A DNA stretch of 64,000 nt. It comes from Candidatus Poribacteria bacterium. Lineage in GTDB: Bacteria; Poribacteria; WGA-4E; WGA-3G. Position 1 is the first letter of the stretch. The number at the start of each line of letters is the position of its first letter. The translations under genes and the position numbers were made by a program. Under the pieces are notes generated by a model. The model did no database searches. It saw only the letters and a list, made by a program, of their open reading frames with translations, and was not told the DNA's origin. This document shows, one piece after another, positions 15,059 to 61,198 of this stretch. The stretch spans positions 1,024,001-1,088,000 of the forward strand of contig CAXXUA010000004.1 in the NCBI GenBank assembly GCA_963663765.2, in the 5' to 3' direction.

Positions 15059-15074
15059 TATTTTAGACCTTTTG

Positions 15075-16028: not shown

Positions 16029-16032
16029 TTTT

Positions 16033-37942: not shown

Positions 37943-38220
37943 AAGTTACCTCAATTCAGGTTATCAAACATAAAGCTTAGACCGAGCCTGTGTCGGTGCT
38001 ACTTCCTATCACCAAATATAAAATACAACAACGACTCAAAGATATATCTATCAATATATCTTTTACCTTACTGAACATTAAACTCTGCGTCTTGCTTCTC
38101 CGCTTCACGAAACGGGTGTGTAAAGTTTTTGTCACAAGAATGTACTGAATACAGATCTTGCTTAGTATTAGGTAAAATGGTATCCTTCTAAAAAACCAAT
38201 TTTTATCTGAGAGGATACCA

Positions 38221-39628: not shown

Positions 39629-39667
39629 CGCTTAGTGACAAAAACTTTACACACCCAACATGACGGG

Positions 39668-41733: not shown

Positions 41734-41786
41734 AGGACACCCTCCCAATTGTTGAGTCTCGTAGGTAGGGTATTGCACATCCTACC

Positions 41787-41929
41787 CATAAGTGTCAACT
41801 AAAAAGTTTTATACATTGTTGGCGGGGTTTCTAACCCCGATTTTACAGGTCTTGGATCAAAAAATCGGGGTTAAAAACCCCTCCCACAAGAGAATATGCA
41901 AACACTTTTTTCTTAAGTTGACACCTATG
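41787..41929. mobile_element. IS4-like MITE (CATAAGTGTCAACT/AGTTGACACCTATG ends)
   Basis: TIRs plus an internal REP doublet; same family as 7465-7606. Confidence 0.75.
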
Positions 41930-41944
41930 GGGTAGATTCTATAC

Positions 41945-42157
41945 TCACATATACAATACGTTCTGCTTGCCGTCTCCGTTTAATAACCCCAAGGTTCCTC
42001 TGGGTAAGATACCCATTATCCTTTCGATTTCCAATTCCAATGCGTCCAAAAAGGCAACCGTTTTGCTGTTCTTGCCAATTTCTTCATTTGTTATCTCCTT
42101 TGAAATAATAAAGTTCAGAATGTCCTGTAAATGTCGTATACATTCGCACTTGTTCAT
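41945..42157 (-). CDS. Small hypothetical protein
   Basis: ATG 3 nt after the DUF4268 stop; 70 aa; no recognised motif. Confidence 0.45.
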   Translation of the reverse strand: MNKCECIRHLQDILNFIISKEITNEEIGKNSKTVAFLDALELEIERIMGILPRGTLGLLNGDGKQNVLYM

Positions 42158-42160
42158 CTC

Positions 42161-43144
42161 TTATTCTAATTCGTGTAACCGCACCGCCTCTTTAATTATA
42201 GGAGCAAACACTTCTTTGAGTTTAAGTAAATTTTCAATGCACCATTTGTGGATTTCATTCAAGTCATCAGTATCCTCCCAATTAACGTCTCCTTCACGGG
42301 CAATAATAATTTTGGACTCTCGTTTTTCAGGGGATCGAAGCCATTCAAATGAACTTCCAAAAGCTTCTTCAATTGCTGCTTTGTCCTGTTCAAGTGCGTC
42401 AAAGAGGACAAGCCTGTTTCGATTGTCCCTTTCATATATAATTACGTATACAGTCACTTGGGTTCCTCCTCTAAACCAAACATAATAATATACGCCGCTA
42501 TGTCCTGATGAAAAGTAATACCAATTCTCTGGCAGTGCAGCTTTGAGATTGCCAAATTCACCGGTTTCTCGTATTTCATCTATTAGTTTTTGAAAAAAGT
42601 TTCTATAACGTTTCTGTTTCTCTGTCTGTCCAGTAGGTTTGACAGACTTTTTCCATTGATTCGGTGCAATAACAGGTTTAAATTCAAGAGCAACCGGTGC
42701 GTCTTCTAAACCCTCTATTTGTAATAGTTCCACTATGACGGCGAAGAAACCGATGTCTATAGGTGTTTGCTCATTAAGCCATTCTAATACTTGGCGATAT
42801 TCATCTCTAAACTCATCCGCAATCCAAATTATAATTTTCGCATCTAACCCCGCAGCATAGGCAAGAAGTTGTCCAAGATGACTATGATCCGCTCCCCCTA
42901 ACTGATTTTCAATAATGACTGTTTTTGAGCTGGTATCGTCTTTTGCTTTGGCAAGCAAATCAAGTGATAAATTACCAACAGGGTATTCTGTATCTGTTAC
43001 TTCAAGGTCAAGGTCAAGGGCTTCTGATAACCTATCAATATTTTCTGCTAACCACGGGGTGAAATTCCTTGGTTCATTCGGGAAGTGTTCACGTAATGGA
43101 ACTCTTTTTAGTCTACTAAACTTAGGAATGTTCGTATTCGACAT
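42161..43144 (-). CDS. DUF4268 protein with N-terminal PD-(D/E)xK (NucS-like) nuclease
   Basis: E..FTPWLAENID.L, DLLA and IIENQLG..DH.HLGQL..YAAG; DUF4268-like C-terminus. Confidence 0.85.
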   Translation of the reverse strand: MSNTNIPKFSRLKRVPLREHFPNEPRNFTPWLAENIDRLSEALDLDLEVTDTEYPVGNLSLDLLAKAKDDTSSKTVIIENQLGGADHSHLGQLLAYAAGLDAKIIIWIADEFRDEYRQVLEWLNEQTPIDIGFFAVIVELLQIEGLEDAPVALEFKPVIAPNQWKKSVKPTGQTEKQKRYRNFFQKLIDEIRETGEFGNLKAALPENWYYFSSGHSGVYYYVWFRGGTQVTVYVIIYERDNRNRLVLFDALEQDKAAIEEAFGSSFEWLRSPEKRESKIIIAREGDVNWEDTDDLNEIHKWCIENLLKLKEVFAPIIKEAVRLHELE

Positions 43145-43192: not shown

Positions 43193-43324
43193 CTAATCAT
43201 GGTTTATCTGTAAGGGTAGGTTATCAATGATGCGGGTGGATTCCACGCTGACATGGATGATGCGGGCGATTGCTGGGACGATATCGCGCGGATCTGAAAA
43301 CCAACCGTTTGGATCGTTGATTAC
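43193..43324 (-). pseudogene. Orphan 3' end of a type ISP RM gene (scar 3)
   Basis: INDPNGWFSDPRDIVPAIARIIHVSVESTRIIDNLP*, homologous to the C-terminus of the 51799-54900 protein. Confidence 0.8.
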
Positions 43325-43338
43325 GTGTGATAGAACAA

Positions 43339-44553
43339 CTATACTGTTTCTTGGAGGGATTCTGCGGCGAAGATTGTTAAGCACAATTCTTCGCCAAAAA
43401 GTTTATAAACAGGTGTTTTTCCACTCAATTGTTCGCTTTCGTTCAGGATGATACCGACACCTTCCCCACGCCGTTCTAAAAAGTGTCTCCGCTTCACTTG
43501 GTTTCCTACATCATCGTCTATAGCAATTTCTGATAGTAAGCGCGCTAAGAGTTCATTACGGGTGGCTTGGCTATAGGGTAAGTTTTCAATTGTTACAGTA
43601 TTTGCTAATGCACCGGGAGAATATAGTTCCAGTCGATCAGCAAACATGAACAGACGAATTTTTGACTCGCCTTTAGAATAATCTCGATGCACGACTGCAT
43701 TAACGATTGCCTCAAAAATCGCACGCATGCTGTATTGGGGTTGGTCTATCCTTCCAATTTCCTTACGCGCTGATATCTTGTTGTGTTTTTGAACAAACTT
43801 AAAGGCATCTATAATCTGTTGGTCAAGTGGTCCTCTAAAATCTATTGCGTCAATTTGGTAGTTAGCATCTTTTTGTTTACCGCTATAATAAACAGCCTGA
43901 ATAAAACTGTTATACAGGAATTCATCAGGTGTGTCGTAACACATCAAAACACCCGCTACAGAAGCACGGATCTCCCGACCTTCTTTAACGAGTAACCTTT
44001 TTTTAATGAGTAGGTCTTCTATCTCATCTTCAGCAGCATCTTCTGTTATGAAGCGTTGATATAGTGATTCCCTTAATGTTTTTCTATGTGTGTCTGGAAC
44101 TAACTGTTCATCGAATCTGATAATTCTTGCTTGTGATCGACTTTGCATTAACCTCCCTAACTGTTCCGTGGTCATTTCTCTCTTGCTGCTGCCCTGACGG
44201 ATGAAATAACCGTTAGGTGTTTTGTGGACAAAAAGTCCTTTTAGAATTTCTATTTTCAGTATATTTTTTTCGTCTATCGTTAATTTCTGTGTGTCAATGC
44301 GGACGGTGGGTTTGATACTGTCATTGCATATTTCAACAACATTTTTTTCTATATGATCCAATTTCTGCAGTTCAATTCCAATGATTTCTTTGTTGTCGTC
44401 AATACCGATAAGTATCATTCCTCCTTCAGCGTTCGCAAATGCGGCGATCTCGTCTGCCATGCTGTCTCTGTGAGGCATCTCTCTTTTGAATTCCATCGTT
44501 GAGTCTTCACCAAGTATAATTTTTTCAATGAGTTCTGTTGTACTGTAAAACAT
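43339..44553 (-). CDS. Schlafen/AlbA_2 domain protein with RecG-C-like (HATPase_c_4) region
   Basis: GEDST.EFK, AFANA.GG..LIGIDD, EAIVNAVVHRDY, I..F.DRLE..SPG and RN..LA motifs. Confidence 0.9.
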   Translation of the reverse strand: MFYSTTELIEKIILGEDSTMEFKREMPHRDSMADEIAAFANAEGGMILIGIDDNKEIIGIELQKLDHIEKNVVEICNDSIKPTVRIDTQKLTIDEKNILKIEILKGLFVHKTPNGYFIRQGSSKREMTTEQLGRLMQSRSQARIIRFDEQLVPDTHRKTLRESLYQRFITEDAAEDEIEDLLIKKRLLVKEGREIRASVAGVLMCYDTPDEFLYNSFIQAVYYSGKQKDANYQIDAIDFRGPLDQQIIDAFKFVQKHNKISARKEIGRIDQPQYSMRAIFEAIVNAVVHRDYSKGESKIRLFMFADRLELYSPGALANTVTIENLPYSQATRNELLARLLSEIAIDDDVGNQVKRRHFLERRGEGVGIILNESEQLSGKTPVYKLFGEELCLTIFAAESLQETV

Positions 44554-44555
44554 AA

Positions 44556-47207
44556 CTAATCTCCAAGATGAATACGTTTATAACGTTGTTCAAAAGCCTT
44601 TTCTCCACCTTCAAGAATGCTGCATATATATTTTCTAACATTTCTTTGTTGGATACTTGCAGGATGTTGCACATAGGTTTGACCTTTTATAACTTCAAGT
44701 GGTAAAACCAGTTCAGCATCGCCGTTGACCACGATATTGGCATTGTGTGTTACAACGATAACCTGGCGTTTGGTTTTTATTTCACGTAACTGTCGCACAA
44801 TGAGGTCAGAAATTAATTCGTTATCCAAATCATCTTCGGGTTGATCCAATAGGAGTGGCTCTTCTCCATAAGATAGGATGAACGTCAACAGTGCAGCTGC
44901 TCTTTCTCCTGGTGATCCTGATTCCAACGGTTTACTGGGTTTATTGTTAGTACTTAACAAGGTGATTTTCAATTTATCCTTGGGAAACCATAGTGAGAGA
45001 TCGATCATTAATTCTGGCGGCAACGATTGTATACGATCAGCAAATGATTTTTTAATTTCGTCAGGCTTTTCTCTCACACGAATTCCTTCAATCGTTTCTT
45101 TGAGTTTTTCAATCTTCTTGTTTCCACTGTTTTGATAGATCTTTTTTAAAACTTCAAAATCCGAGGCAAAATGATCAGGACATTGCAGTATACGTCGAAT
45201 TTCTTGCTCAATGGTGTCCCAACTCTCTCCAAAAGGCTGGACTTCAATGCTGACGAATTGATTGCCTTGTAAAACAGAGATCAAAAATTCCTGCCGTTTT
45301 TCTGAGAGTATTTTTCTCTTCTTTTTAATTTTGTCAAACTCCTCTTTTTTTTCAGTTTCTAATGTTTGCATTCGTGATTTGTGCTCGTGAATTTGATCTA
45401 AATCTTTCTGCATACTTTTCTGCTGGGTTAAAAGCAAATTGTATCTGTTTGGGTCTATATCTTGCTGTTCAAGGTCTAAACGTGATTGTTCGTACCGCTC
45501 AATATCTGACTTAAGTTCCTGCATCCAAGGTGCTGCATTTTTTTCAGTTTGCCATTCAGTGAGAATAGACTCTGCTTCTTGACTCAATTGATTTAATTTT
45601 TTGTGAATGGTCCACCATTTATCATTTGTTTTTTGCAGATCTGACAACATATCACTGTTTTCGCTAAAAATCCCTTTATTAAAATCTGATGGTGTTATCT
45701 TATCCAATGTTTCCAATAAGGAGTGTTGTGCTTCATTCCATTTATTTTCTATGGTATCAATTTCACTTAACTGTTGCTGGCGTTGCCGATATTTTTGCAT
45801 CACGTTCTTATGACCTGATTTTTCGATGTACTCAATTTGTCTCGTCAAATCGTTCAATTCTCCGATTAATCGGTTTTCTTGATCTATCTTTTCTTGCAGC
45901 TCTTGTTGATTGTTTTCAATTTGCTTATATCGGTTGTTACCTTCCTTAATCTTTGTTTTGATATTTTCTGCGTCAACTTCTGGTACCTCATCTATGATTT
46001 TAATCAGTTTACTTGGTTCTTTAGCCAATTCAAAAATCTCCTTTTGACTAAAAACGTGGGCAGGAAGCAACGTTTTAATTTCTCCTTGAAAAGGTTCCCA
46101 CGTGCCATCATCGTTTTTTTGTTCCAAAGAGGGTTTATCTGGATTAGGAGACCAGTTCAAACGGTAACATATATTATTTTTCCAATATAATAATGATATA
46201 TCGGTATTAGGATTCAATAGACTGTCTTTATCTTCTGAAGAATAATATTTATCACTATCTGCTTTGAGAGTTTTGTGAATATCTTTATCGCGTCTCAGAA
46301 CGAGTCTTATGAATTCTAATAAGGTTGACTTACCCGTTCCACGACCACCAATAATTGCATTGAGAAATGGACTGAAATTGCATTCCAATGCTGTTTGATG
46401 TCCGATATATTTTGCATCGCTAATTTCCAATTTTTCTATAAAATAGGGCGGTAGATTGTTCGGAGTGTCATTCATATTGCGATTTACCGAAACATCACCG
46501 TCTCGTAGCGCAATTTTTAAACCTGCTAAAGAAGGTTTATCCATTTTGATCCAAGTAAAATTTCCGAAATCATCGGCACTGAAATCGTGGGTATCGGATC
46601 CAGTGACTTGAGTCCATCCGACTTTTTCTTCAGTGTATACTTGCGGTTTCATTGAACAACTGTCATGCAGTTCCATCGCATAAATCTTTTTATTTTTTAG
46701 TACCTTCTTCAGTCTTTTAGGTTGAAGTTGAAATAGTCCCTTTGTTTTATTAACGTGTGCTGGAATGGGAATCCCATCGCGTTTTGCAATTTCATTAATG
46801 ACTTCTGCAATGTTTTTAGAGGTCACATCATCACTGTCTCCTTTTGTTCCTGGATAATCAATCGCACCAAGTAACTTATCAATATGGCTCTCATCCTTAT
46901 CGTACCCAAAGATCGCCAATACATGAACATCGTCATATGTTGAAATTTCTACACCCGGAAATAGATATATAGGTCTGAACCATGGAGGTTCGTTTTCTTG
47001 TAATTCCTTTAACGTATGCTTCAAACGATCGACCCACTCACCACTGTTATGGTCGGTAATTGCTACACAATCAATTTCCTTTTCCATGAATGCTTTTAAC
47101 CAATCTTCAGGTTCCAATTCTCTATCACTGAAGTCTACTGACGCAGGTGTATGTGTGTGAAAATCGAATTTCCACCACCCTGCACCCGCAAATTGAAACT
47201 CATTCAT
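44556..47207 (-). CDS. PHP phosphoesterase-ABC ATPase fusion (TrlF/Ppl-like defence protein)
   Basis: DFHTHTPAS, AITDHN, AH and GSDTH (PHP); GGRGTGKST, coiled coil, SPGE, DQPEDDLD and VTHN. Confidence 0.92.
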   Translation of the reverse strand: MNEFQFAGAGWWKFDFHTHTPASVDFSDRELEPEDWLKAFMEKEIDCVAITDHNSGEWVDRLKHTLKELQENEPPWFRPIYLFPGVEISTYDDVHVLAIFGYDKDESHIDKLLGAIDYPGTKGDSDDVTSKNIAEVINEIAKRDGIPIPAHVNKTKGLFQLQPKRLKKVLKNKKIYAMELHDSCSMKPQVYTEEKVGWTQVTGSDTHDFSADDFGNFTWIKMDKPSLAGLKIALRDGDVSVNRNMNDTPNNLPPYFIEKLEISDAKYIGHQTALECNFSPFLNAIIGGRGTGKSTLLEFIRLVLRRDKDIHKTLKADSDKYYSSEDKDSLLNPNTDISLLYWKNNICYRLNWSPNPDKPSLEQKNDDGTWEPFQGEIKTLLPAHVFSQKEIFELAKEPSKLIKIIDEVPEVDAENIKTKIKEGNNRYKQIENNQQELQEKIDQENRLIGELNDLTRQIEYIEKSGHKNVMQKYRQRQQQLSEIDTIENKWNEAQHSLLETLDKITPSDFNKGIFSENSDMLSDLQKTNDKWWTIHKKLNQLSQEAESILTEWQTEKNAAPWMQELKSDIERYEQSRLDLEQQDIDPNRYNLLLTQQKSMQKDLDQIHEHKSRMQTLETEKKEEFDKIKKKRKILSEKRQEFLISVLQGNQFVSIEVQPFGESWDTIEQEIRRILQCPDHFASDFEVLKKIYQNSGNKKIEKLKETIEGIRVREKPDEIKKSFADRIQSLPPELMIDLSLWFPKDKLKITLLSTNNKPSKPLESGSPGERAAALLTFILSYGEEPLLLDQPEDDLDNELISDLIVRQLREIKTKRQVIVVTHNANIVVNGDAELVLPLEVIKGQTYVQHPASIQQRNVRKYICSILEGGEKAFEQRYKRIHLGD

Positions 47208-47258
47208 AACAGATACCTCCTAATTTTGTGAATTTGTGTTATCCGAATCTTTTATACC

Positions 47259-47882
47259 TCAGGACCGAGGTGTTGGTTTCAAAAGTCGGCTATTCCTCTC
47301 ATAGATGTCTCGGATTCCGAGGTCGTCTTGGATGCGTTTTGCTTCATAGAGCGGGACACGTTGGTGTTTTTTCTGCAAGATGTCAGCAACACTATTTGTC
47401 CACTTCTCAACTTCTGCAGGAGTAGTAAGGGGTATCCCTAGTGAGACGAAAGCAGGAACCTTACGGATATCTACTTCATGGATCAGGTGCGCTATCAGTG
47501 GGTGTGGCTGATCTAATGGTGGAGCTTCTTTAAAGGGTTTCGCATATCGTTGTCGTCCTCGGGCACCACCAATTTCATAAGGGATCCATGGTGATGTAAA
47601 CGTTCCTGGTCCGATGATACCTAATAAAGCAGAAGATGCATCTAATCCCTGTTCAATACACAAGGCAGTTTTGATGTCATCATTTTGGGCTTGTGCGTCC
47701 TGCATACATTTATTGTCTTCATCTAACCAATAGTCAAGTCCAATTTGCTTTAATATCTCACTACACTTACGTGCCATGATCTTATCACAAACAGTGCGTC
47801 TGTAAGAGATGAACACAATTGATTCCATGTCGGGTTTAAAACTGCGAACTTGGCCAGTTTCAAAAAAGTTTTTGGCAGGCAT
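47259..47882 (-). CDS. TIR domain protein (TIR2)
   Basis: VFISYRR..D; G.DYWLD; SPWIPYEIG with the candidate catalytic Glu. Confidence 0.85.
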   Translation of the reverse strand: MPAKNFFETGQVRSFKPDMESIVFISYRRTVCDKIMARKCSEILKQIGLDYWLDEDNKCMQDAQAQNDDIKTALCIEQGLDASSALLGIIGPGTFTSPWIPYEIGGARGRQRYAKPFKEAPPLDQPHPLIAHLIHEVDIRKVPAFVSLGIPLTTPAEVEKWTNSVADILQKKHQRVPLYEAKRIQDDLGIRDIYERNSRLLKPTPRS

Positions 47883-47893
47883 TGCTTTTACTC

Positions 47894-48370
47894 CTATTCT
47901 ATATCTTCTAAATTGGTTAAATCTTCTACACCAGCAAGATCTGATAGAGCTCGTGAATATTTACACAATTCCACCTGAAGCAACTTAAGCTCTTCACGAA
48001 AAGCGTTGCATTCAGACTCTTTCTCAAAGTCACCGGCGATACTTTTTGGATGCCACCTGGCCGTAAATGGACGAACCACTTGGTTAAGAACTACGACTGC
48101 AATTTTCGTAAACTCAATGCAGTCCTGCCCTTGTTCTTTAAGGATTCTTCTCGTAGTTTTAAACAGCGAATAAATGCTTTCTAACGCTGTTTTTTCATCA
48201 CCAGATTCGGTGGGCAATGCCTGCGTGGTAATTCTTGTAAGTAACTCAATGTATAGTTTCCAAGCAGCTTCTCTGTCGCCTGCTTTGGGAGACCATTCTG
48301 CCTCCACAATGCTTGCGTTAATTTTCAGACTATCCAACCCCCATTGTTTCAACCATTTTCTCAAATTCAT
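47894..48370 (-). CDS. Helical hypothetical protein between the two TIR genes
   Basis: ATG at 48370 overlaps the TIR1 stop (ATGA); AAW.LYIELLTRITTQ, GDEKTAL.SIYSLF and LNQVVRPFTA.WH. Confidence 0.8.
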   Translation of the reverse strand: MNLRKWLKQWGLDSLKINASIVEAEWSPKAGDREAAWKLYIELLTRITTQALPTESGDEKTALESIYSLFKTTRRILKEQGQDCIEFTKIAVVVLNQVVRPFTARWHPKSIAGDFEKESECNAFREELKLLQVELCKYSRALSDLAGVEDLTNLEDIE

Positions 48371-48996
48371 TTCGACCACCTTTCGCCCGAACGGTTATTT
48401 TTGAACGAATCATGAGAATTGTCGGGCAGTATCTCTGCGCTTCGTCTTCGTTGGAAAGCGTCATGTATCCAAGACTGCACAGTACGTGGATTTTCGCTCC
48501 AATTGTAGATTTTAGCATATCCACGTTCAATATTATCGTGGAGTCTTGGAGGTATTGTCTTATAGTCATAATAAACGGATCTTCCATTGCAATAGATTGT
48601 TTTGATGTCGTTATAAGGTGTACCAAGAGGATTATTAAGTGCTCCAAAAAGCCCAGAAGGATTGGGGTACGTCGGCAACAAAATCCCTAAAAGACCGGAA
48701 CGAGAACTAGCTTTTGTCTGTCGTATACTGGATCCAATTTCCCAATCCACAAATTTTCGTTGCCACGTATGAGCACCGACGAGAACAACTGTCACTGTGG
48801 AATCTTGGAGATAGTTCTCCCGTATGATTTGAAAAATTCGATCTGTAGAGAGTCTGGTATCATCAATATCTCCAATTTCAACAGATTCTGACACCATGAT
48901 GTCATGGATGTCTGAAAACATGCGTTCAAACCAGTCCCGGTAATATTGGTCTTCATCATGGTAATAACTGACAAAAACTCGATGCTTGTCATTCAT
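48367..48996 (-). CDS. ThsB-like TIR domain protein (DUF1863)
   Basis: HRVFVSYYH; IRENYL.DSTVTVVLVG..TW.RK.VDWEI..S; GLLGI; IPPRL.DN; AGGAGG RBS. Confidence 0.9.
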   Translation of the reverse strand: MNDKHRVFVSYYHDEDQYYRDWFERMFSDIHDIMVSESVEIGDIDDTRLSTDRIFQIIRENYLQDSTVTVVLVGAHTWQRKFVDWEIGSSIRQTKASSRSGLLGILLPTYPNPSGLFGALNNPLGTPYNDIKTIYCNGRSVYYDYKTIPPRLHDNIERGYAKIYNWSENPRTVQSWIHDAFQRRRSAEILPDNSHDSFKNNRSGERWSK

Positions 48997-49054
48997 TAGA
49001 CTCCTCCTTTGTAGTTTATGTTAAAAATACTTTTGGTCTCTCAATATTTATTCA

Positions 49055-49324
49055 TTACCCATCTGTTATCTCAGCAGAGAGGTTGTCAATAATCCGCGCC
49101 GATTCCACACTCACATAAACAATACGCTTAATTGCTGGAACTAAATCACGCTGAATAGTCTCAAATTCAACATCGGTTGGATTGCGTTGCAGTGTTGCAA
49201 AATGGGACTGAATTGTCAGCATCTCGTTTAGATTTAGAGATAGAGTGCCTTCTTGGCTGATACTCATTAATTCGGCATCATCTGCATTTAGAACTTGAAA
49301 TTCATTGACCTGATAGGGCATCAC
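49055..49324 (-). pseudogene. Chimera of a PurL 5' fragment and a type ISP 3' end (scar 2)
   Basis: LSLNLNEM..IQ.HF..L.RNPTDVEFET (PurL linker, lacking the following WSEHC) fused in frame to RDLVPAIKRIVYVSVESARIIDNL. Confidence 0.75.
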
Positions 49325-49451
49325 TTTCTTCGCTATTGAATCTGAACCATGATTATGTAAAGTTTGGACAATTTGTGTCTATTTATTGTCCAAACTTTAC
49401 TAAAAGTTAAGCATTAAGTCCATTATAATCTTAACGTGATGATAAGTGTTA

Positions 49452-51029
49452 TCATTCTACTATGTCAAAACTAATTATTTTGACATACATGTATCTTGTT
49501 TGTTTTTGATTGACTATACCAAGGTCAATTGTGCCATTTACTTGCTTAGTCATTTTAGAGGGTATAGTACCCACAAAGTTTACAACATCTGAATCAATCG
49601 GTACGTGCTTATCATTAAAGAAGAAAACATGACAACAAATATTTTTCACGTCTCTATCAAGCTCGTTTCGTAGTGAAAATGTATAAACTGCATATTCTGA
49701 CCAACGTATATTTTCGTAGGTGATTCCTTCCTCCACGAGGTTTTGACCGCTCTCAGGATCCAGCAGTTTAATATCTTGCTTTAGATTTAGCTGTCTGATA
49801 TTAGGATCAATATCAAAATTTATTAATTTCGCCCTCCTAGCACATATTTGTCCTGAAGATACTCTATCCATGCGGATTTGTTTGTCGTTTTTATCTTTGA
49901 AAGTTATCTGACAATGAACGTTTTCAATGTCCTCACTGCATCGGTTCCGCAGGGAAAAGCCAAAAGCGGTGGCAGGTATCCATTTCCATTTCCCAAACCA
50001 TGTTATTCCCTCTAAATTTTGACTATTAGAATCATCTTGTTCAGAGTGTTTCACTCTATCGAAACTAACAATTTCTATCTCATGTCTTATAGATTTGCTG
50101 ACTCTTGCGTCAACATCAAAACTTATCAACTTTGCGGCTCCAGCTGGTAGCAAACCGGGAAATACCACATCATCCCGATAGATTTTATGGTCCGTCGCAT
50201 CAAAGAACGTCACGTAACAACGAATATTCTCTATATCTTCAAGACACTGATTTCGCAGGGAAAATCTATAAGAATACTCAAAGTCCCAAGGGGCATCTAC
50301 GGGGATATCGTTAGTTCGGATTGGAAATCTTTCCACCGAGGAAGATCCCTGGTTTGGACCAGTCCGCGATATCCAATGATAGGTTTCTGATTCCTCCCAC
50401 GTTAATTCCCCAATAGTTACGGCTTCCAACAAAGGATTTGTAGGTCTATCTTCAATGAGCAGCGTTTCAAGGCATTTTGAGGGGACGGCGAAATTGAGCA
50501 ATTGTCCTTCATCTAAACTTCCTACAGAAACACCTACAACTGTTCCTTCGTTATTTAGAACAGGACCGCCACTGCTGCCTCTGGAAATCGGAGCAGTCAT
50601 CTGTATGTGTTTATCACCGGAACTTCGTTCTCGGAAACCGCTAATTATACCTTGTGAAACTGTACCTTCCAAAAATCCTTGTGGATTGCCTACCACGTAA
50701 ACAGGATCGCTAACCTGAACGACTTCACTATCAGCCAGATTGAGCGGTGGTGCTTCAAAATCATCAGGTACATCAAGTAAAACCAGATCATTTTCGCGAT
50801 CAATTGCAATAATGCCTTTAATGTCGAATAACGTATCCTTGCCTACCAACTTTGCATAAACTTTTGCTGCATCTTCAACAACGTGGAAATTGCTAACAAT
50901 TTGCGTGCCCTGAACAACGAATCCACTTCCTCTTCCTATTGTTTTATTCTTAGCATCTTCTGCGACTAATAGAACAGTAGAAGCTAAGGCTTTTTGGGTA
51001 ATTTCTCGAACAGTTTTTTGATTATTCAC
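49452..51029 (-). CDS. Trypsin-like serine protease with three repeated C-terminal beta domains
   Basis: GSGF, SNFHVV, DLVLL and GSSGGP triad motifs; FSLRN..D.(E/K)N..C...F.D three times; no signal peptide. Confidence 0.88.
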   Translation of the reverse strand: MNNQKTVREITQKALASTVLLVAEDAKNKTIGRGSGFVVQGTQIVSNFHVVEDAAKVYAKLVGKDTLFDIKGIIAIDRENDLVLLDVPDDFEAPPLNLADSEVVQVSDPVYVVGNPQGFLEGTVSQGIISGFRERSSGDKHIQMTAPISRGSSGGPVLNNEGTVVGVSVGSLDEGQLLNFAVPSKCLETLLIEDRPTNPLLEAVTIGELTWEESETYHWISRTGPNQGSSSVERFPIRTNDIPVDAPWDFEYSYRFSLRNQCLEDIENIRCYVTFFDATDHKIYRDDVVFPGLLPAGAAKLISFDVDARVSKSIRHEIEIVSFDRVKHSEQDDSNSQNLEGITWFGKWKWIPATAFGFSLRNRCSEDIENVHCQITFKDKNDKQIRMDRVSSGQICARRAKLINFDIDPNIRQLNLKQDIKLLDPESGQNLVEEGITYENIRWSEYAVYTFSLRNELDRDVKNICCHVFFFNDKHVPIDSDVVNFVGTIPSKMTKQVNGTIDLGIVNQKQTRYMYVKIISFDIVE

Positions 51030-51321
51030 AGTTGGTCCTCATAAAAATAAAACTCTGTATTGTAAGCCAAATTTATTATAGTCATAATACTCCCATGGAA
51101 TGCGGCCACTTAAATACAACTTTCTATTCTTCATTAATACACCTTTCTATTCTTTATTGCAATGCAATATTACCTTATAAGGTAAGGAAAATGCTTGAAC
51201 AACGTCGTGGGAACGTCCAATATTGTCAATAACAACACGGATTATTTTAACACAGCATCTTATGCTTTGTCAAAAATGATGTATTTACCCACTCAATAAA
51301 CCATAAACGAAACGCAGCACA

Positions 51322-51522
51322 TTAGCCATCAATTATCTCCCCAGGCAACCCATCAACAATCCGAGCAGACTCCACACTTACATAAACAATCCGCCGAATA
51401 GCACCAACAATATCCCGCGGATCAGCAAACCAACCGTTTGGGTCGTTGACGATGCCGCTATCTGTGTCGGTCTTAATCTTGTAGCGGTCAATAAACCACT
51501 CCAGCGGCGATCTACCGTTGAC
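51322..51522 (-). pseudogene. Orphan 3' end of a type ISP RM gene (scar 1)
   Basis: Manual translation: VNGRSPLEWFIDRYKIKTDTDSGIVNDPNGWFADPRDIVGAIRRIVYVSVESARIVDGLPGEIIDG*. Confidence 0.85.
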
Positions 51523-51552
51523 GAACGAATCTAACGAGATTTCAATACATAA

Positions 51553-51747
51553 CTATTCAGTTGTTATAGCACGCCAAACCTGATCATATTTCTTATAAAT
51601 GTTTTCAAGTTTTGATTTTTGATCGCTAAGGGCTCCGATTTCAGTCTCAAGATTTTGGTTCTCTGCTTTAATAACCCCCAGCAAACTTACTGTCATCTGT
51701 TCAAGCGTGCCGGTTTTATCATCAAGATTCACGTCGTTGAGGTCCAC
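51553..51747 (-). CDS. Small coiled-coil hypothetical protein
   Basis: AAGGAG RBS before GTG; 64 aa. Confidence 0.55.
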   Translation of the reverse strand: MDLNDVNLDDKTGTLEQMTVSLLGVIKAENQNLETEIGALSDQKSKLENIYKKYDQVWRAITTE

Positions 51748-51798: not shown

Positions 51799-54700
51799 TT
51801 AGTTTTCTCCTTCAGGATATAATGCGGGAAAACTGTTGATAATTTTTACCGTCTCAAGACTGACTGTTATAACACGCGCTATTAAGTCCACAATATACTT
51901 GGGGTTTTCCTCACTATTTGGGTCTCTCACAATATAACTTCCTTTACGTTTTTTTGTATCTTTATCCACCTTGATTTCGTACTGATTAACTATCCACTTC
52001 AAGGCGGACCAACTACCTAACTTATAGTCGTGTACTTCAGGGGGGATGCCTTCAATAGTTAAGAAATCGTTGTATTTAATCTGTGTATTATTGTTCTCAA
52101 AGGTCATCTTCTCAACAGACCAATTTAGCTTTGTGTTTGATTTTTCCTTAAGCGTCAATCCTTCGTATTTTGGAACTGACTCATAGTTGACATGGAGAGG
52201 CGCCAACTGCTTACCAGCATCTGCAAATGTCCAAAAGTCTTCAGCAAAAGGGATATGAGGAAGACTATCTTTGAGGTCCTCCCGGTACTTATTACGATAC
52301 TCCTTGTGATGTAACAGTCCATAGATATAGTAGAATATGTCCCACTTGGATATATTATCATCGTCGTACTGGTTTTGGAACTCTGCTAATGCCCAGTCAG
52401 TTATATTTTCACGGCGATTCGTCCCATCTTCACCGTAGGTGTAGAAAGGAAAACATTGGACCTTTTCAAATGCCAAATCTATACTCGGAATCCTATTAGT
52501 AGCAAGACAACCAAAACCTTTTCTATCACCAATACCAGCGACACAAATCACTTGATTTTCCGTTTCTGCTTCAAAAGTCGGAAATATGGAAGGAAACTGT
52601 CCGGGGCTGTCAATCAGAATTTTGTCAAGAAGTAGATTTGTTTTCGTAAAGGGTCTGTAAAGGGATTCCCTTACTTTGTGATTTACATATTCAGTGCTTA
52701 TCCCCCGCCTTAACTTGCTTTTTAAGTCACGACTCCATTTTATTTTGGTAGCATCGTTTAAAACAAAATCATTAACTTTAGGTTTAGGAGGTGCTTGACG
52801 CATATAACGATCCACTTCTGCATTGTAAGTTTCTATCATACGTTCAACATTATCACGCAGTGAGTCTTGATTAAAATTGTAAACCCAGGGATCTCTATTA
52901 GTTGACACACCGAGACTAAAGTTTTTAAAAATTACATCTTCTGCGGTCTTTGCAGTGATTACTTTGTCTGTTTTCACCTCTTTAGTTCCCAATGGAATAA
53001 GGTTATCATAATCTTCTTGGAGTCCTTCAGTGAGCCATCTATGCTTTGCGTCAGGTTGAATCTCTTGCCATGTAACGTTGTCTACATGTTGGTGTTTGTT
53101 AAGAAAATCAAACGTCTGTACCTTGTTCTGTAATTTTGCTTCATCGTTGTAAAAGATACATGGCGAGTCAACTGGTTCACCTGTTTTCACGAGCAGCGCG
53201 ATACTTACACCGACCGTAATGCCGAACACATTGGAGTCAGTTTGTCCTTCTCGCATACCTCCCCCTAAATTCAGTAGATATAGTGCGTTGAATCCTTCTG
53301 CCAAATGTTTGCGCATTCCATCAAACGTCCGTTTCATGATAAAACTGTTGTTCGTAACAAACGCAACGATACCGGTGTCTCCAATTCGTTCTGATGCCCA
53401 GAAAAACGCTCTCACATAAGGGTCATAAAGATATTTACTATATTGTGCATTGGAATCTTTTGAATATGTATCTTTAATCTGTTTGTCAAGGGGTGGATAT
53501 TCACGTTTTTTATTATTTTGGTTTTCATCGTCCTGACCTGCATAATATGGAGGGTTGCCGATAACGACAAACATATCTTTTTCTTCTTGCTGTTTAACCC
53601 GTTTCGTGTTTTCTTCAGAAAGGAGTGTCATCTGTACTTGATCGAACAATTCAAATGTATCTGCAAATGCGATACCATCAAAACGGAGATATTCCCCTAT
53701 AATATCTTTGTATTCTTGCTCAATGTTCAGGTTGGCGATATAGTAGGGTAATAACTCGTTTTCGTTGCAATGCAATTCGTTTTGATATTTTTTCTCTAAT
53801 GCAATTTTAGGGATGTCCTGCATCAGTCGGACGATGAAATTACCCGTGCCGACAAATGGATCTATGATATGAACACCTGTGTCGGAAAGCGAACGCTTAA
53901 ACTCTCTTTGTAGGAGATACTCAACGCTGTTGACCATAAAATCTACTATCGGTTGCGGCGTATAGTAAGTACCTTGTGTAGCTGCTTTTTTTTCACAGTA
54001 CTCTCTAAAAAATGTCTCATAGACGGTGTTGAGAAAGTGTTGTTTTTCTGAGAAGTCTTTACATTGGGTTGCAGCGTTTTCAATGGCAACATAGAACGGG
54101 TCAAGAGGTTTGAGAAAATCGTCACGACTCATCGCTTGTTGCATAAGTGCTGCGCTCACCTTTTCAATCTCAACGGCAATGATATTTCGGTTTGCAAAAT
54201 CCGATAGATTAAAAACTTTTCTGAAAATACGTTCAGTGAGAATATGCTGGATGAGCATCTCTTCAACGGTATCTTGTAAAAGTTTCGGGTCAATTGAGTT
54301 AAGACAGACTTGGTAGAAAGCAGCGAATGCTGCCTTATAGGAGGCATTTGTTTTATGTTGTTCGGTAATAAGTTCTTTCAATTTGTCTGCAAGTGCTGGA
54401 ATCCGATCACTGAATTTTTCAACTGCCTCATACCAATCGCTGAAAGTGGTATCTGAATATGAGAAAAGTCGTTGAAGTGCCTCCACAAGATTTTTGGAGT
54501 CGGTGATGTCTGTGTTTAGCACTTCCTGTTCGTCCTGAAACAATATAGCGCGCTCAGGAGTTTGAAACAGGATATTGTCAAATGGATAACCGTTTTGACG
54601 TTTCTCCTGAATCGCTATCGGGAGATCGTCATCTATGTCTTTCGCTTCCCAGTAAACGATAGGGAGTCCGTATTCATCTATAACCGCTCCGTCAATGAAG

Positions 54701-54900
54701 ATATTGTTTCCTGCTGTGGTGCGCATCGGATATTGTGGGACAAAGGTTGCTTTTACCTTTTTTGCACAAATATCAAGTAAGATAGCAAAAGGGTTACTCA
54801 CTGTGCCTTCGTGTGTAAGGTTATGCTGCTCGTATTGCTCCAATGCTTTGTAATAGTCTTTTATAGACTTGTGTGTGTGTTTAAGATTCAGTTTTTCCAT
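51799..54900 (-). CDS. Single-chain restriction-modification enzyme (nuclease, N6-adenine MTase, type ISP-like specificity domain; no helicase)
   Basis: DG...WEAKD nuclease motif; YTPQPIVDFMV, IIDPFVGTGNF and GNPPY; ISP-type C-terminus DPN...P.YIVDLIARVITVSLET. Confidence 0.92.
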   Translation of the reverse strand: MEKLNLKHTHKSIKDYYKALEQYEQHNLTHEGTVSNPFAILLDICAKKVKATFVPQYPMRTTAGNNIFIDGAVIDEYGLPIVYWEAKDIDDDLPIAIQEKRQNGYPFDNILFQTPERAILFQDEQEVLNTDITDSKNLVEALQRLFSYSDTTFSDWYEAVEKFSDRIPALADKLKELITEQHKTNASYKAAFAAFYQVCLNSIDPKLLQDTVEEMLIQHILTERIFRKVFNLSDFANRNIIAVEIEKVSAALMQQAMSRDDFLKPLDPFYVAIENAATQCKDFSEKQHFLNTVYETFFREYCEKKAATQGTYYTPQPIVDFMVNSVEYLLQREFKRSLSDTGVHIIDPFVGTGNFIVRLMQDIPKIALEKKYQNELHCNENELLPYYIANLNIEQEYKDIIGEYLRFDGIAFADTFELFDQVQMTLLSEENTKRVKQQEEKDMFVVIGNPPYYAGQDDENQNNKKREYPPLDKQIKDTYSKDSNAQYSKYLYDPYVRAFFWASERIGDTGIVAFVTNNSFIMKRTFDGMRKHLAEGFNALYLLNLGGGMREGQTDSNVFGITVGVSIALLVKTGEPVDSPCIFYNDEAKLQNKVQTFDFLNKHQHVDNVTWQEIQPDAKHRWLTEGLQEDYDNLIPLGTKEVKTDKVITAKTAEDVIFKNFSLGVSTNRDPWVYNFNQDSLRDNVERMIETYNAEVDRYMRQAPPKPKVNDFVLNDATKIKWSRDLKSKLRRGISTEYVNHKVRESLYRPFTKTNLLLDKILIDSPGQFPSIFPTFEAETENQVICVAGIGDRKGFGCLATNRIPSIDLAFEKVQCFPFYTYGEDGTNRRENITDWALAEFQNQYDDDNISKWDIFYYIYGLLHHKEYRNKYREDLKDSLPHIPFAEDFWTFADAGKQLAPLHVNYESVPKYEGLTLKEKSNTKLNWSVEKMTFENNNTQIKYNDFLTIEGIPPEVHDYKLGSWSALKWIVNQYEIKVDKDTKKRKGSYIVRDPNSEENPKYIVDLIARVITVSLETVKIINSFPALYPEGEN

Positions 54901-54916
54901 AAGGTTACCATTGGTG

Positions 54917-55720
54917 TTAAGTTAATTCTGATTGATTACAAGAGTCAACGATGCGAAGTAGATGACTCGCGAAGATTATCACTTCAGCTGCTTCTTCACC
55001 GGAAATTTCAACTTCTCGGTGGCTACCGGGATTTTTATAGGACCCAATCGCACCAGCAAACAGATCTGAGCGCGCTTGCTTTTCAGCTTGCTGTTGATTT
55101 TGGTCAGTCAGATTACCATTGTCAACATTAAACGCCTTACGCATTAAAGCAACTCCTATATCTGTATCGTTATAGTTTCCTGCTTTACGGACAGCGATTT
55201 CAACTTGTTTGAATGCTTCCAACACGGCTGTATCATAAGACCCTTGTAAGAAAAGAGACCAAACTTTTTGTACGATTATAGGATGAAGTCGCCCTTTAGG
55301 TAGGAGTTCTACCTTGCGATAAGTTTCTAAATCTTCAGATGTCCCGACCCTTTGTCCGCGTCTAGTAACAAAGTATGTAGTACTTGTACCCGCAGAACTA
55401 ATGTTTGACAAGCTTGTTGGACTTGGTGCGACAAAACCTTCTCGCTGCAACCACTGCCAAGCTTCCATGAGTGCATAGAGGACCTTGTCATGACATTCTG
55501 GTGGATAATTTAGGTTCAGTTCTTTTTTCTTGGAATCTGACATGCGATTCAAATCACTTGACATAGCTTGATATGAGATAATGCCTTCCGGTCTGATAGA
55601 TTGGGTGCCCTTTAGAGATAGTAAAGACAATAGAAGCGGTCCGGCGAGTTCTTCTGGTTCAAGGCTTAATAAATGCTCTGCATTTGGAAGTAGTTCAAAT
55701 AGTTTATAGAAGATTGGCAT
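54917..55720 (-). CDS. TIGR02391 family protein
   Basis: LHP.I...F..G.YD.AV.EAFK.VE..VR; G..LM.KAF; LFAGAIG..KNP.SH. Confidence 0.85.
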   Translation of the reverse strand: MPIFYKLFELLPNAEHLLSLEPEELAGPLLLSLLSLKGTQSIRPEGIISYQAMSSDLNRMSDSKKKELNLNYPPECHDKVLYALMEAWQWLQREGFVAPSPTSLSNISSAGTSTTYFVTRRGQRVGTSEDLETYRKVELLPKGRLHPIIVQKVWSLFLQGSYDTAVLEAFKQVEIAVRKAGNYNDTDIGVALMRKAFNVDNGNLTDQNQQQAEKQARSDLFAGAIGSYKNPGSHREVEISGEEAAEVIIFASHLLRIVDSCNQSELT

Positions 55721-61144: not shown

Positions 61145-61198
61145 AATATACTCCTTTTGTGGTTTATTTCACACGAAATAATATTGTTTTTCCGACAA

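Follow-up and report, generated by a model that had tools for sequence, protein, structure and literature searches.

Rhs and CDI loci contain arrays of orphan C-terminal tips. Arrays of T6SS effector-immunity genes in Vibrio cholerae are attributed to homology-facilitated illegitimate recombination anchored upstream, together with ordinary homologous recombination, in a paper that also cites the orphan-tip arrays of Rhs and CDI (Kirchberger 2017, PMC5361080). Restriction-modification (RM) gene complexes are reported to insert with long target duplication, bringing no mobile-element genes and generating direct repeats of more than 30 bp of a sequence that is single in the empty site (Furuta et al. 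2010, PMC2853133). In Prochlorococcus, repeated integration of tycheposons is described as leaving arrays of partial tRNA genes (bioRxiv 10.1101/2020.12.28.424599).

The locus described here belongs to a Candidatus Poribacteria sponge symbiont and was analysed within a stretch of 64,000 nucleotides (the window). In this genome and in its relatives, 3' relics of Type ISP restriction genes part blocks of anti-phage genes. We consider it likely that the relics are scars of C-terminal displacement that were subsequently reused as homology arms, and the evidence suggests that ordinary recombination, not an integrase, has driven the growth and reshuffling of the island.

Orphan ISP 3' ends in the window

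A hidden Markov model (HMM) of the ISP C-terminal end, run against the six-frame translation of the window, recovered the three fragments named in the original prediction, each on the minus strand and terminated by a stop codon: relic A (model positions 1-66, E=2e-42), relic B (positions 36-66, E=6e-13) and relic C (positions 23-67, E=2e-23). The count of three was incomplete, a fourth fragment (relic D) having been missed. A degenerate DNA pattern for R-I-(V/I)-(Y/H)-V-S-(V/I)-E-S matched four times in the window, always on the minus strand, against 0.01 matches expected from 100 shuffles; relic D contains an exact match at 41935-41960, whereas the HMM alone detects it weakly (E=0.6). The features of the region are:

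54917..55720, minus strand: Hypoth_Ymh (TIGR02391) protein, first gene of the head unit (PF09509 E=3.2e-25, TIGR02391 E=2.2e-17)
51799..54900, minus strand: intact single-chain RM enzyme of 1033 aa, DrdV-like type IIL/IIG architecture
51553..51747, minus strand: 64-aa ORF between the head gene and relic A
51322..51527, minus strand: relic A (3' side exact, far end at about 51527), final ~64-66 ISP codons, FVNGRSPLEWFIDRYKIKTDTDSGIVNDPNGWFADPRDIVGAIRRIVYVSVESARIVDGLPGEIIDG, and stop
49452..51029, minus strand: cargo 1, Trypsin_2 serine protease of 525 aa (PF13365 E=6.9e-27)
49151..49324, minus strand: purL', first ~57 codons of the gene for FGAM synthase PurL (FGAR-AT_linker E=1.5e-8)
49055..49150, minus strand: relic B, last 31 ISP codons, RDLVPAIKRIVYVSVESARIIDNLSAEITDG, and stop, fused in frame to purL'
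43339..48996, minus strand: cargo 2, block of the five genes that follow (Pfam, NCBIfam, PADLOC)
48367..48996, minus strand: cargo 2, ThsB-TIR
47894..48379, minus strand: cargo 2, 161-aa ORF
47259..47882, minus strand: cargo 2, TIR_2
44556..47207, minus strand: cargo 2, Ppl/TrlF PHP-ATPase
43339..44553, minus strand: cargo 2, Schlafen AlbA_2/HATPase_c_4
43193..43330, minus strand: relic C, final ~45 ISP codons, VINDPNGWFSDPRDIVPAIARIIHVSVESTRIIDNLPLQINHD, and stop
42161..43144, minus strand: cargo 3, DUF4268 protein, the PADLOC candidate defence gene PDC-S11 (PF14088 E=1e-24, PDC-S11 E=2e-97)
41931..41972, minus strand: relic D, AERIVYVSIEST, 3' side cut by a REP-like repeat
41785..41935, no strand assigned: REP/MITE-like intergenic repeat that truncates relic D

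As originally noted, each of the three larger fragments has different cargo behind it: the Trypsin_2 protease and purL'; the ThsB-TIR, TIR_2, Ppl/TrlF and Schlafen genes; the DUF4268 gene. Homology of the island to that of a related locus, L002, has already ended at the REP/MITE-like repeat, although L002 has a relic in the same relative place as relic D, between DUF4268 and purL. The window has further copies of the repeat at 7.4-7.6, 13.6-14.0, 19.3-19.6, 20.9, 23.7, 40.2 and 57.4-58.2 kb, and other Poribacteria loci have copies as well.

The relics do resemble one another more than they resemble the neighbouring gene at 51799-54900: their mutual DNA identity is 64-73% over 102 nt (family D3), against 31-44% amino-acid identity to that gene's product. 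Differences among them fall mostly at third codon positions, as read by eye, uncounted, from the alignment. They span only 12-70 residues of a 342-position domain, namely its conserved tail, and the idea that the array might also swap RM specificity is not borne out. It is highly improbable that the relics are silent cassettes for programmed specificity switching of an ISP or type IIL enzyme in the style of shufflons or hsdS. PF18135-only ORFs of 350-600 aa do exist elsewhere in Poribacteria, in some cases on a contig that also has a complete ISP gene, and complete genes are mosaic in their target-recognition-domain part (L006, for instance, shows 88% and then 68% identity). However, the relics lack the variable recognition domain, are all direct and none inverted, are unrelated in DNA sequence to the adjacent intact gene, and have no recombinase among the ORFs scanned (see below).

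The present head gene

The gene at 51799-54900 had been taken for the intact ISP gene of the locus. Pfam divides its product into an N-terminal region, ISP_coupler, N6_Mtase/Eco57I and Type_ISP_C, and finds neither an Mrr nor a helicase domain. The alignment to 7LO5/7LVV (a 1029-aa chain) runs over residues 13-1026 against 6-1026 (E=1e-186), whereas LlaGI and LlaBIII align from residue 190 onward only. We take PDB 7LO5 to be DrdV. PADLOC assigns the protein to REase_MTase_IIG (E=1e-219), and by eye alone a putative PD-(D/E)xK motif can be made out in the N-terminus. On these matches the product is a predicted type IIL/IIG single-chain RM enzyme of the DrdV/MmeI-like class, in which a chain of about 1000 aa combines a nuclease region at the N-terminus with a methyltransferase and a recognition domain; it is colinear with 7LO5, a solved member. 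Given the missing Mrr and helicase domains and the full-length match to 7LO5, we rejected it both as a Type ISP enzyme and, at the low identity to the relics given above, as their parent; its identity to the proteins of ISP genes is only about 33-36%. The 64-aa ORF that follows has no match in Pfam, NCBIfam or PADLOC and no tblastn match in 78 related loci.

Parent genes and related loci

Type ISP enzymes are described as single polypeptides that combine a nuclease of the Mrr family with an SF2 helicase-like ATPase, a coupler, a methyltransferase for N6-adenine and a recognition domain at the C-terminus (PMC4666363). The proteins closest to relic A (98-75% identity) are 1596-1614 aa long and contain PF13156, PF04851, PF00271, PF22240, PF02384 and PF18135. 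One of them, P0004 (1607 aa), is 98% identical to relic A and has Mrr_cat, helicase, coupler, MTase and Type_ISP_C domains; relic A is also 97% identical to residues 1539-1602 of P0005 (1604 aa). Judged by their domains, the parent genes are of the Type ISP class (LlaGI/LlaBIII type). The window relics match full-length Poribacterial ISP proteins at 67-97% identity and, on this evidence, are the 3' ends of different ISP genes of about 1600 aa in Candidatus Poribacteria. The original view of them as displaced ends of different ISP genes is thus upheld, and the parent family, which it left to be found, is identified.

The 78 related loci were fetched by the single peptide pattern RIV[YH]VSVES; each species was represented by one genome, in many cases a metagenome-assembled genome (MAG). 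A full-length ISP gene is present in 55 loci, and many PF18135-only proteins of 128-600 aa lie on Mb-size contigs. Across the 78 loci, extra ISP ends are on the strand of the index gene in 15/15 cases (13/13 at E<=1e-5) and downstream of it in 14/15; 5' or middle fragments were seen in three loci only (L064, L007, L009). Within the fetched flank, 9 of the 55 loci with a full-length gene have downstream orphan ends (L002, L003, L006, L007, L009, L060, L061, L063, L067), which makes stacking a minority state. In these nine, orphans lie downstream of a full-length homologue and in the same orientation, as C-terminal displacement predicts; the full ISP gene of the window having been replaced, this arrangement is seen through the relatives only.

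The 5' breakpoints of the relics range from ISP codon ~1444 to ~1585, a spread of about 140 codons, and the native ISP stop is nearly always retained. The canonical site reads PhyH-sulfatase-PEP_hydrolase-ISP-[cargo]-purL-purQ, its flanks being seen in L001, L002, L058, L066, L075, L076 and L077. In L058, L066, L074, L075, L076 and L077 replacement of the ISP gene came from its 5' side and spared the 3' end; what stands in its place is a WD40 gene, a type IIG gene or nothing.

One could envision that each cassette brought a complete ISP gene, creating tandem ISP-plus-cargo units whose ISP copies were later deleted; 3' stumps would survive, while harmful promoter-bearing 5' stumps (nuclease-helicase without target-recognition domain) would be purged. 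Such a history would fit the graded decay among relics, the succession in L060 of a full ISP gene, an 874-aa 5'-truncated copy and a short relic, the 885-895-aa 5'-truncated copies in L058 and L065, and the state of L007 and of protein P0046, in both of which an internal deletion has brought the Mrr N-terminus and the C-end together. It overlaps with displacement, since both require illegitimate deletion or join events. We nevertheless hold it to be doubtful, for it leaves unexplained the purL' piece fused to relic B, the occurrence of one junction with four different neighbours and the chimeric relic of L067, all described below. The excess of 3' over 5' remnants could itself reflect selection against expressed N-terminal nuclease-helicase stumps instead of the mechanism of entry.

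Turnover of the cargo

Modules start about 50-65 bp past the ISP end, a distance that is constant across genomes: the gap from ISP end to ThsB is 59-65 bp, and that from ISP relic to DUF4268 is 49-57 bp (window, L002 and L067). The cargo that recurs across related loci consists of ThsB-TIR-Ppl-Schlafen, DUF4268/PDC-S11 and proteases. Proximal modules differ among relatives, in agreement with the expectation of variable cargo after ISP ends. The five-gene block of cargo 2 is found behind an ISP relic in L007 and L009 as well, and Ppl-Schlafen without the remaining block in L002, L060 and L064; of the 6 loci that have Ppl-Schlafen, 5 have it distal to the head gene, and L002 has it directly after the ISP gene. 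DUF4268 is distal in L002 and preceded only by a cyclase in L067. Protease-like genes follow ISP ends in L003, L074 and L060 too, at 34-49% identity only. A 198- plus 538-aa module sits behind a relic in L003 and behind a full ISP end in L061. Orphan ends keep their own downstream cargo, as in C-terminal displacement, and the Schlafen-relic-DUF4268 arrangement, with the junction at relic C, is found again in L002.

A widespread purL'::ISP junction

Full purL genes lie downstream of ISP in related loci, and the purL' fragment shares 70-81% identity with their beginnings; the presence of this fragment indicates that the window array derives from the canonical PEP-hydrolase-ISP-[cargo]-purL site; L061 and L067, which also carry the purL' relic, share another context of their own. 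The junction connects purL codon ~57 with ISP codon -32. Microhomology between the parental sequences does not exceed 1-2 nt at this point, and they have no common core, so that the join is demonstrably illegitimate. It is nucleotide-identical in the window and L003, the match spans it in L061 and L067 too, and it occurs in 10 further protein clusters at 90% identity. Divider B, its junction being common to other genomes, was thus not made in the window lineage, a point on which the original prediction needs changing. In the four loci (window, L003, L061, L067) the junction has four different downstream neighbours, and the cargo between ISP end and purL' also differs in all four.

This recurrence bears on the trivial explanation by collapsed repeats or chimeric joins in a metagenome-assembled genome. 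The window probably stems from a metagenomic assembly of an uncultured symbiont and the relatives are MAGs; yet relics only 64-73% identical are too divergent to mislead an assembler, and the purL'::relic and Schlafen-relic-DUF4268 junctions are found again in independent assemblies, some of which are records with chromosome titles. Mis-assembly, which the original prediction named as a refuting outcome, is thereby excluded, its probability being negligible.

The same junction invites a different reading, in which integrase-free cassettes circulate. A loop-out circle (ISP end, cargo and purL', closed at purL'::ISP) would integrate via a single RecA-mediated crossover in any ISP 3' end, duplicating the end on both sides of the cargo, and would be excised by recombination between the ends. 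L003 is the exact product expected (full ISP end, cargo, purL'::relic), with 99-nt direct repeats, 95/99 identical, flanking cargo and purL', while the window repeats reach only 64-73%. The wide distribution of the junction and the presence of two purL' relic ORFs on one 57,490-nt contig agree with this, as does the likeness to the "insertion with long target duplication" described for RM genes (PMC2853133). Against it, neither a circle junction nor an empty/filled pair was observed among the loci compared, four loci with four cargos between ISP end and purL' call for extra exchanges regardless, most other relics are without such a portable junction, and gene conversion accounts equally well for the near-identity in L003. 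We regard circular cassettes as unlikely.

Recombination within relics

In the L067 relic, identity to relic B is 81% in the 5' part and 47% in the 3' part, and identity to relic C is 62% and 69%, respectively; the DNA downstream of it is 93% identical to that after C. By these identities the relic is a chimera and shows crossing-over inside relics. Since such crossovers swap downstream modules, the order of the array is no clean chronology, and the strict temporal order proposed for the cassettes is not borne out. Between the window and L002, most of a stretch of about 1.9 kb is 97-100% identical, against 53-95% for the rest of the block, as would be left by recent exchange. In L003 the relic differs from the full ISP end of the same genome at 4 of 99 nt, which we read as homogenisation.

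Absence of an integrase

Displaced-3'-end arrays in a single orientation are the classic signature of 3'-end-targeting integrative elements. The relics might accordingly reflect tandem site-specific integrations at the ISP 3' end by elements carrying a replacement end, like tRNA- or gene-3'-end-targeting islands, with an integrase lost or encoded elsewhere; tRNA-targeting integrations are among the cases discussed for RM genes (PMC2853133). However, no integrase family was found among 17 regional ORFs and 27 ORFs of at least 100 aa from the remaining window, and no tyrosine or serine recombinase in 264 ORFs (117+147) of 24 related loci; the only transposases present are of the DDE type, sporadic and unrelated. 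The initial observation that no integrase or fixed att site is visible thus extends to the relatives. With breakpoints spread over ~140 codons and no shared core at purL'::ISP, we rejected a site-specific island at a gene 3' end and consider this origin improbable. An integron or CALIN array (IntI, attI, folded attC) was likewise rejected: no integrase family occurs in the window or the 24 loci, and the dividers all come from the coding sequence of one gene, of which they are remnants that differ in their 5' ends.

Growth of the island

We favor a scheme in which an ISP gene heads an integrase-free defence hotspot in Candidatus Poribacteria. New DNA would have replaced the ISP gene from the 5' side, leaving the old 3' terminus. 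Homology within the ISP gene or upstream of it may have anchored the incoming DNA, whose far end would have joined illegitimately somewhere in the final 20-160 codons of the resident gene, through homology-facilitated illegitimate recombination or an equivalent route. The old ISP 3' end would thereby have been pushed downstream together with its cargo. From then on the relics and purL/purL' would serve as short homology arms, between which RecA-type recombination might swap, duplicate or delete modules. The relics themselves would be non-functional remnants at varying stages of decay. In the window, the head unit (Ymh, DrdV-like enzyme, 64-aa ORF) would have taken the place of a full ISP gene and left relic A.

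Homology-anchored entry is inferred from end states. The original prediction had incoming DNA recombine in the ISP gene and join illegitimately at its far end. The illegitimate join is borne out at purL'::ISP; the anchor does not hold for the latest replacement, which cannot have been anchored inside an ISP gene, the window having no full ISP gene and the head gene being so distant from one. Several junctions lie within ~0-25 nt of the upstream stop (64-aa ORF and relic A, Schlafen and relic C, type IIG gene and relic in L074), tidier than random illegitimate ends would be, which suggests later deletional trimming or selection.

It is tempting to speculate further that the ISP 3' end and the widespread purL'::ISP scar constitute a phylum-wide docking site without an integrase. 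Units of ISP end plus cargo might circulate among Poribacteria and enter any ISP end by host homologous recombination, possibly via circular loop-out intermediates, relics being kept because each would supply the module that follows it with a homology arm and perhaps also with a promoter. We offer this tentatively, as one possibility; if true, it would amount to an integron-like cassette economy run wholly on RecA.

Comparison with known systems

The tRNA arrays of Prochlorococcus tycheposons reportedly depend on element-encoded integrases and fixed att sites, neither of which was found in the window or in the relatives scanned. Going by the tycheposon report, the two have in common that successive acquisitions in a genomic island are marked by one displaced 3' fragment of the target after another (bioRxiv 10.1101/2020.12.28.424599). 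Nearer to the present locus are the polymorphic-toxin arrays formed by C-terminal displacement, described as a long gene with a conserved body followed by co-oriented orphaned 3' ends, each with its own downstream gene, free of integrases and recording past replacements (PMC5361080). Here, in contrast, the displaced gene is a Type ISP restriction enzyme and can be replaced at the head by an unrelated RM enzyme; the right border is a housekeeping gene, purL, whose relic is now part of a divider; and the cargo consists of unrelated anti-phage genes (Thoeris-like TIR, Ppl, Schlafen, PDC-S11, protease, cyclase) instead of a cognate immunity gene. No toxin-immunity style coupling of displaced tip and cargo emerged, Ppl, ThsB-TIR, Schlafen, PDC-S11 and the cyclase being self-contained defence genes without known link to the ISP tail, and the finding of different cargo behind the same relic junction also counts against it.

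The insertions reported by Furuta et al. resemble the present array in lacking mobile-element genes, in having flanking direct repeats that comprise tens to hundreds of bp of the target, and in the possible overlap of such a repeat with a gene's 3' end (PMC2853133). In that report RM genes are the insert, whereas here the RM gene 3' end is the duplicated target and other defence genes are the inserts (PMC2853133); the repeats are, moreover, stacked several deep and common to several species. Integrase-free transfer hotspots and core defence hotspots are described as having variable defence cargo between conserved flanks, with turnover without visible mobile-element genes (Oliveira 2017, PMC5635113; Johnson 2023, PMC10250203). 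The abstracts of these papers report no internal dividers made of displaced gene ends (PMC5635113, PMC10250203). In the Poribacterial island, unlike the core defence hotspots, a defence gene makes up the left flank, and this gene is being eroded and copied into the island.

Results

Orphan ISP ends in the window

Four orphan 3' ends of Type ISP restriction-modification genes, here called relics, lie in the window:

51322-~51527, minus strand: relic A, stop-terminated (ISP tail profile, E=2e-42)
49055-49150, minus strand: relic B, stop-terminated (ISP tail profile, E=6e-13)
43193-43330, minus strand: relic C, stop-terminated (ISP tail profile, E=2e-23)
41935-41960, minus strand: pattern match in relic D, 'AERIVYVSIEST' (degenerate DNA pattern)

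The profile was run against the six-frame translation of the window. Relics A, B and C encode one and the same protein tail; the original prediction had read these three fragments in this way, which the profile and the stop codons confirm, and had overlooked D. Identification of the latter is based on motif statistics and position. The degenerate DNA pattern for R-I-(V/I)-(Y/H)-V-S-(V/I)-E-S has four matches in the window, all on the minus strand, where 0.01 are expected; D lies about 190 bp after the DUF4268 gene and its 3' side is cut by a REP-like repeat. When D is compared with the relic of the related locus L002, DNA homology ends about 45 nt after the DUF4268 stop. DNA identity among the relic copies is 64-73%, with differences largely at third codon positions as read by eye from the alignment, without a count. 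The copies thus seem to have diverged inside working genes rather than to be recent duplicates of each other. Because some relics show signs of decay (substitutions of conserved residues in L061 and L067; truncated open reading frames), we regard them as remnants and not as genes.

Parent genes

The adjacent intact gene at 51799-54900 was considered as the parent of the fragments and rejected: its tail is only 31-44% identical to them and it is devoid of Mrr and helicase domains. It is colinear over its full length with the 1029-aa chain of PDB 7LO5/7LVV, which we take to be the type IIL enzyme DrdV. The fragments derive instead from Type ISP enzymes of ~1600 aa encoded by Candidatus Poribacteria. 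Relic A shares 98% identity with the C-terminus of a 1607-aa protein carrying the full domain set and, on a 1604-aa member, corresponds to residues 1539-1602 (97% identity); C and B correspond to residues 1560-1601 (67%) and 1574-1601 (71%) of the same protein. The search that produced the 1607-aa match also returned many proteins of 128-600 aa with Type_ISP_C as sole domain, eight of them on contigs of 1-6.4 Mb and one on the same contig as a full ISP gene. No 5' or middle ISP piece was detected in the 64 kb by tblastn with two full ISP proteins as queries.

We also considered whether the C-terminal end is an exceptional island of conservation. Its conservation is 0.75 over the last 67 aa, beside patches at 0.46, a figure inflated by the peptide with which the loci were selected; conservation is just as high in other stretches of the gene, and the idea was rejected. 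Nor does a hidden nucleotide constraint emerge from 56 ISP ends over their final 62 codons, leaving an embedded element unsupported: third-position identity averages 0.62 over the final 31 codons and 0.67 over the 31 before them, and only codons 48, 56, 57 and 60 are outlying.

Survey of related loci

A single scan of species-representative genomes with the peptide pattern RIV[YH]VSVES yielded 78 loci, nearly all from Poribacteria. Each species is represented by a single genome, in many cases a MAG, with flanks of at most 10 kb, and fetching by one conserved peptide under-counts decayed relics.

Table. The 93 ISP ends (E<=0.05) of the 78 loci
Closing a full-length gene: 55
Running into a contig edge: 10
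Ending a long 5'-truncated copy: 4 (L015, near a contig edge; L058; L060; L065)
Short orphan ends: 24 (including L065 7428-7526, classed by the script as a long truncation)

Secondary ends, that is, further ISP ends at a locus, are on the strand of the index end in 15/15 cases and downstream of it in 14/15. One or two downstream orphans accompany the full ISP gene in 9/55 loci. The relics are co-oriented, nearly always retain the stop codon and vary in their 5' ends. Pieces from the 5' side or the middle of the gene occur in 3 of the 78 loci only; selection against expressed nuclease-helicase stumps may account in part for this excess of 3' remnants. Among the 117+147 ORFs of 24 loci that were searched with Pfam, neither tyrosine nor serine recombinases turned up, and transposases were limited to scattered DDE ones; no such recombinase is present in the window either.

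Three loci carry a helicase-less ISP form of 874-895 aa that begins at the coupler domain, around ISP codon 674-716 (L058 7523-10210, L060 8081-10705, L065 7544-10201); in L060 and L065 it stands 18-64 bp directly behind another ISP end. Instead of a random stump, it may be an orphan methyltransferase that has persisted. In other ISP genes (L007 8077-10201, protein P0046), large internal deletions have brought the N-terminus with the Mrr nuclease directly next to the final 100-530 residues.

Replacement of the head gene

Seven loci (L001, L002, L058, L066, L075, L076, L077) share the order PhyH, 464-aa sulfatase, PEP_hydrolase, ISP gene or remnant. On the 3' side of ISP come variable cargo and then purL and purQ, except in L075, which has transposases. 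Several loci have lost the ISP gene from its 5' side and kept the tail alone or, in L058, a longer remainder. What lies upstream differs:

L066: a 953-aa WD40 gene
L074: a type IIG Eco57I/TaqI_C gene, with its stop codon 3 nt ahead of the relic
L076: a split type IIG gene
L075: PEP_hydrolase, immediately adjacent
L058: a WD40 gene, then an 895-aa ISP remainder from codon ~705

The head unit of the window, composed of a Ymh gene, the DrdV-like enzyme and a 64-aa ORF ahead of relic A, is another such 5'-side loss. No syntenic counterpart of the window's own site exists among the 78 loci, and full purL is absent from the window. The lactonase and DUF3223 genes of the left flank have no match in these loci, Ymh has a single distant one (L031) and the two sulfatases have only weak ones (~22-34% identity, 10 loci), so that the site is not directly comparable with those of relatives. 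The sulfatases are tandem paralogues of 534 aa (59540-62803).

Cargo modules behind ISP ends

Each module is linked to the ISP end ahead of it. The window's five-gene block ThsB-161 aa-TIR-Ppl-Schlafen is also found behind a relic in L007 and L009, and its Ppl-Schlafen part in L002, L060 and L064; DUF4268, which corresponds to PADLOC PDC-S11, follows a relic in L002 and L067, and in L003, L074 and L060 a Trypsin_2 protease gene stands behind an ISP end. Modules start at a constant distance from the ISP stop (59-65 bp for ThsB, 49-57 bp for DUF4268) and the 5' end of the relic varies by genome (profile positions 36, 47 and 18 for ThsB; 23, 33 and 36 for DUF4268); hence each module appears to have stood once directly behind an intact ISP gene. 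The order in L002 is ISP-Ppl-Schlafen-relic-DUF4268-relic-purL, and this locus has the Schlafen/relic junction and the whole block in common with the window.

By position, the following ORFs of unassigned family are candidate defence genes as well:

L003 11770-13948 and L061 6650-8828: 198+538/541-aa pair, directly behind an ISP end
L001 10689-12413 and L066 10692-12425: 574/577-aa ORF, directly behind an ISP end
L009 12631-13581: 316-aa ORF, directly behind an ISP end
window 47894-48379: 161-aa ORF, conserved inside the TIR block

Pfam and PADLOC gave no match for their representatives in L003, L001, L009 and the window; for the counterparts in L061 and L066 the scan covered Pfam.

Junctions and recombination

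Relic B is fused in frame with the first ~57 codons of purL (purL'). The window and L003 are identical to the nucleotide at this purL'::ISP junction, which also spans in L061 and L067 and recurs in 10 more protein clusters (90% identity), of which two share a contig (P0129, P0132). Comparison with 7 full purL genes and 6 full ISP ends leaves at most 1-2 shared nt at the join, which marks it, on sequence grounds, as an illegitimate junction that arose a single time and was passed on or spread afterwards. Straight after the relic stop come four different neighbours (the ThsB block, the 198+538-aa pair, a reversed 789-aa gene and DUF4268), and the cargo upstream of purL' is unlike in all four loci.

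Crossovers have also occurred within relics. That of L067 is a chimera: its 5' part is 81% identical to B and 62% to C, its 3' part 47% to B and 69% to C, and the DNA downstream matches the B side at 47% (7/15 aligned nt) and the DNA after C at 93%. The L003 relic differs from the full ISP end of its own genome at 4/99 nt, and the DNA on both sides is unrelated. Over most of ~1.9 kb in Ppl-Schlafen, window and L002 are 97-100% identical, against 53-95% elsewhere in the block, a pattern that shows recent exchange between species. Tidy junctions beside stop codons suggest later trimming.

Promoter and terminator matches in the relics do not exceed the shuffled level (23 vs 25.0 and 7 vs 7.1). 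Individual 11/12 sigma-70-type promoter matches lie at 51273-51244 (minus strand), between relic A and the protease gene, and at 49468-49439 (minus strand), just upstream of purL' where a purL promoter would be; the total is not above chance.

Other features of the window

REP/MITE-like intergenic repeats occur at 7.4-7.6, 13.6-14.0, 19.3-19.6, 20.9, 23.7, 40.2, 41.8 and 57.4-58.2 kb, with hairpin cores such as GGGGTT(A/G)AAAACCCC and CCCGCCAAATGCCATACGC, and are common to other Poribacteria (L001, L063, L044 and others). The copies at 41.8 and 57.4-58.0 kb were rejected as island borders, copies being scattered across the window and in other loci. A cas1 gene (413-1405; Pfam E=4e-93) precedes a CRISPR array (1765-~5900) in which a ~37-nt repeat (GTTCGGAAAGTCCTTCCCGTTTGAAGGGAATTGAAAC) occurs 56 times at a spacing of 68-79 nt. 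At 14087-16977 stand three tandem paralogues of 314-323 aa that combine Polbeta nucleotidyltransferase and HepT-like domains (MNT-HEPN type toxin-antitoxin fusion). Perfect 22-nt inverted repeats (38114-38135 and 39635-39656) enclose an ISKra4-family transposase split between two ORFs (38344-39126 and 39203-39628), so that 38114-39656 is probably a degraded IS. Between it and an uncharacterised ORF, at 39813-40315, a 53-nt unit containing a 36-nt core (TCTTTAGTCCCGTAGGGACG...) is repeated six times in tandem and is accompanied by one perfect inverted copy at 40280-40315.

Discussion

Defence islands cluster at hotspots, and the growth of integrase-free islands is poorly documented. The dividers described here are visible scars from which individual events can be read: one illegitimate join common to many species, crossovers in relics of 100 nt, and the takeover of the head position by RM enzymes unrelated to the original restriction gene. 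Incoming DNA was probably anchored by recombination in or upstream of the ISP gene, and its far end joined illegitimately within the last 20-160 codons of the resident gene. Afterwards, relics and purL/purL' would have provided homology arms for module swapping. The core of the capture model originally proposed stands; its strict chronological order of cassettes fails, since the dividers are old, recur across genomes and have been used again. For new defence genes in uncultured symbionts, a simple search key is offered by orphan ISP ends and by the ISP-to-purL interval.

In the literature outside subscription journals, we found no description of ISP 3' remnants as dividers of defence islands, or of this Poribacteria hotspot. 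The arrays are akin to the "insertion with long target duplication" described for RM genes (PMC2853133). They also fit the C-terminal, or sequential, displacement model put forward to explain effector-immunity arrays of T6SS as well as Rhs and CDI loci (PMC5361080); the present findings extend that model from toxin loci to restriction enzymes and anti-phage cargo.
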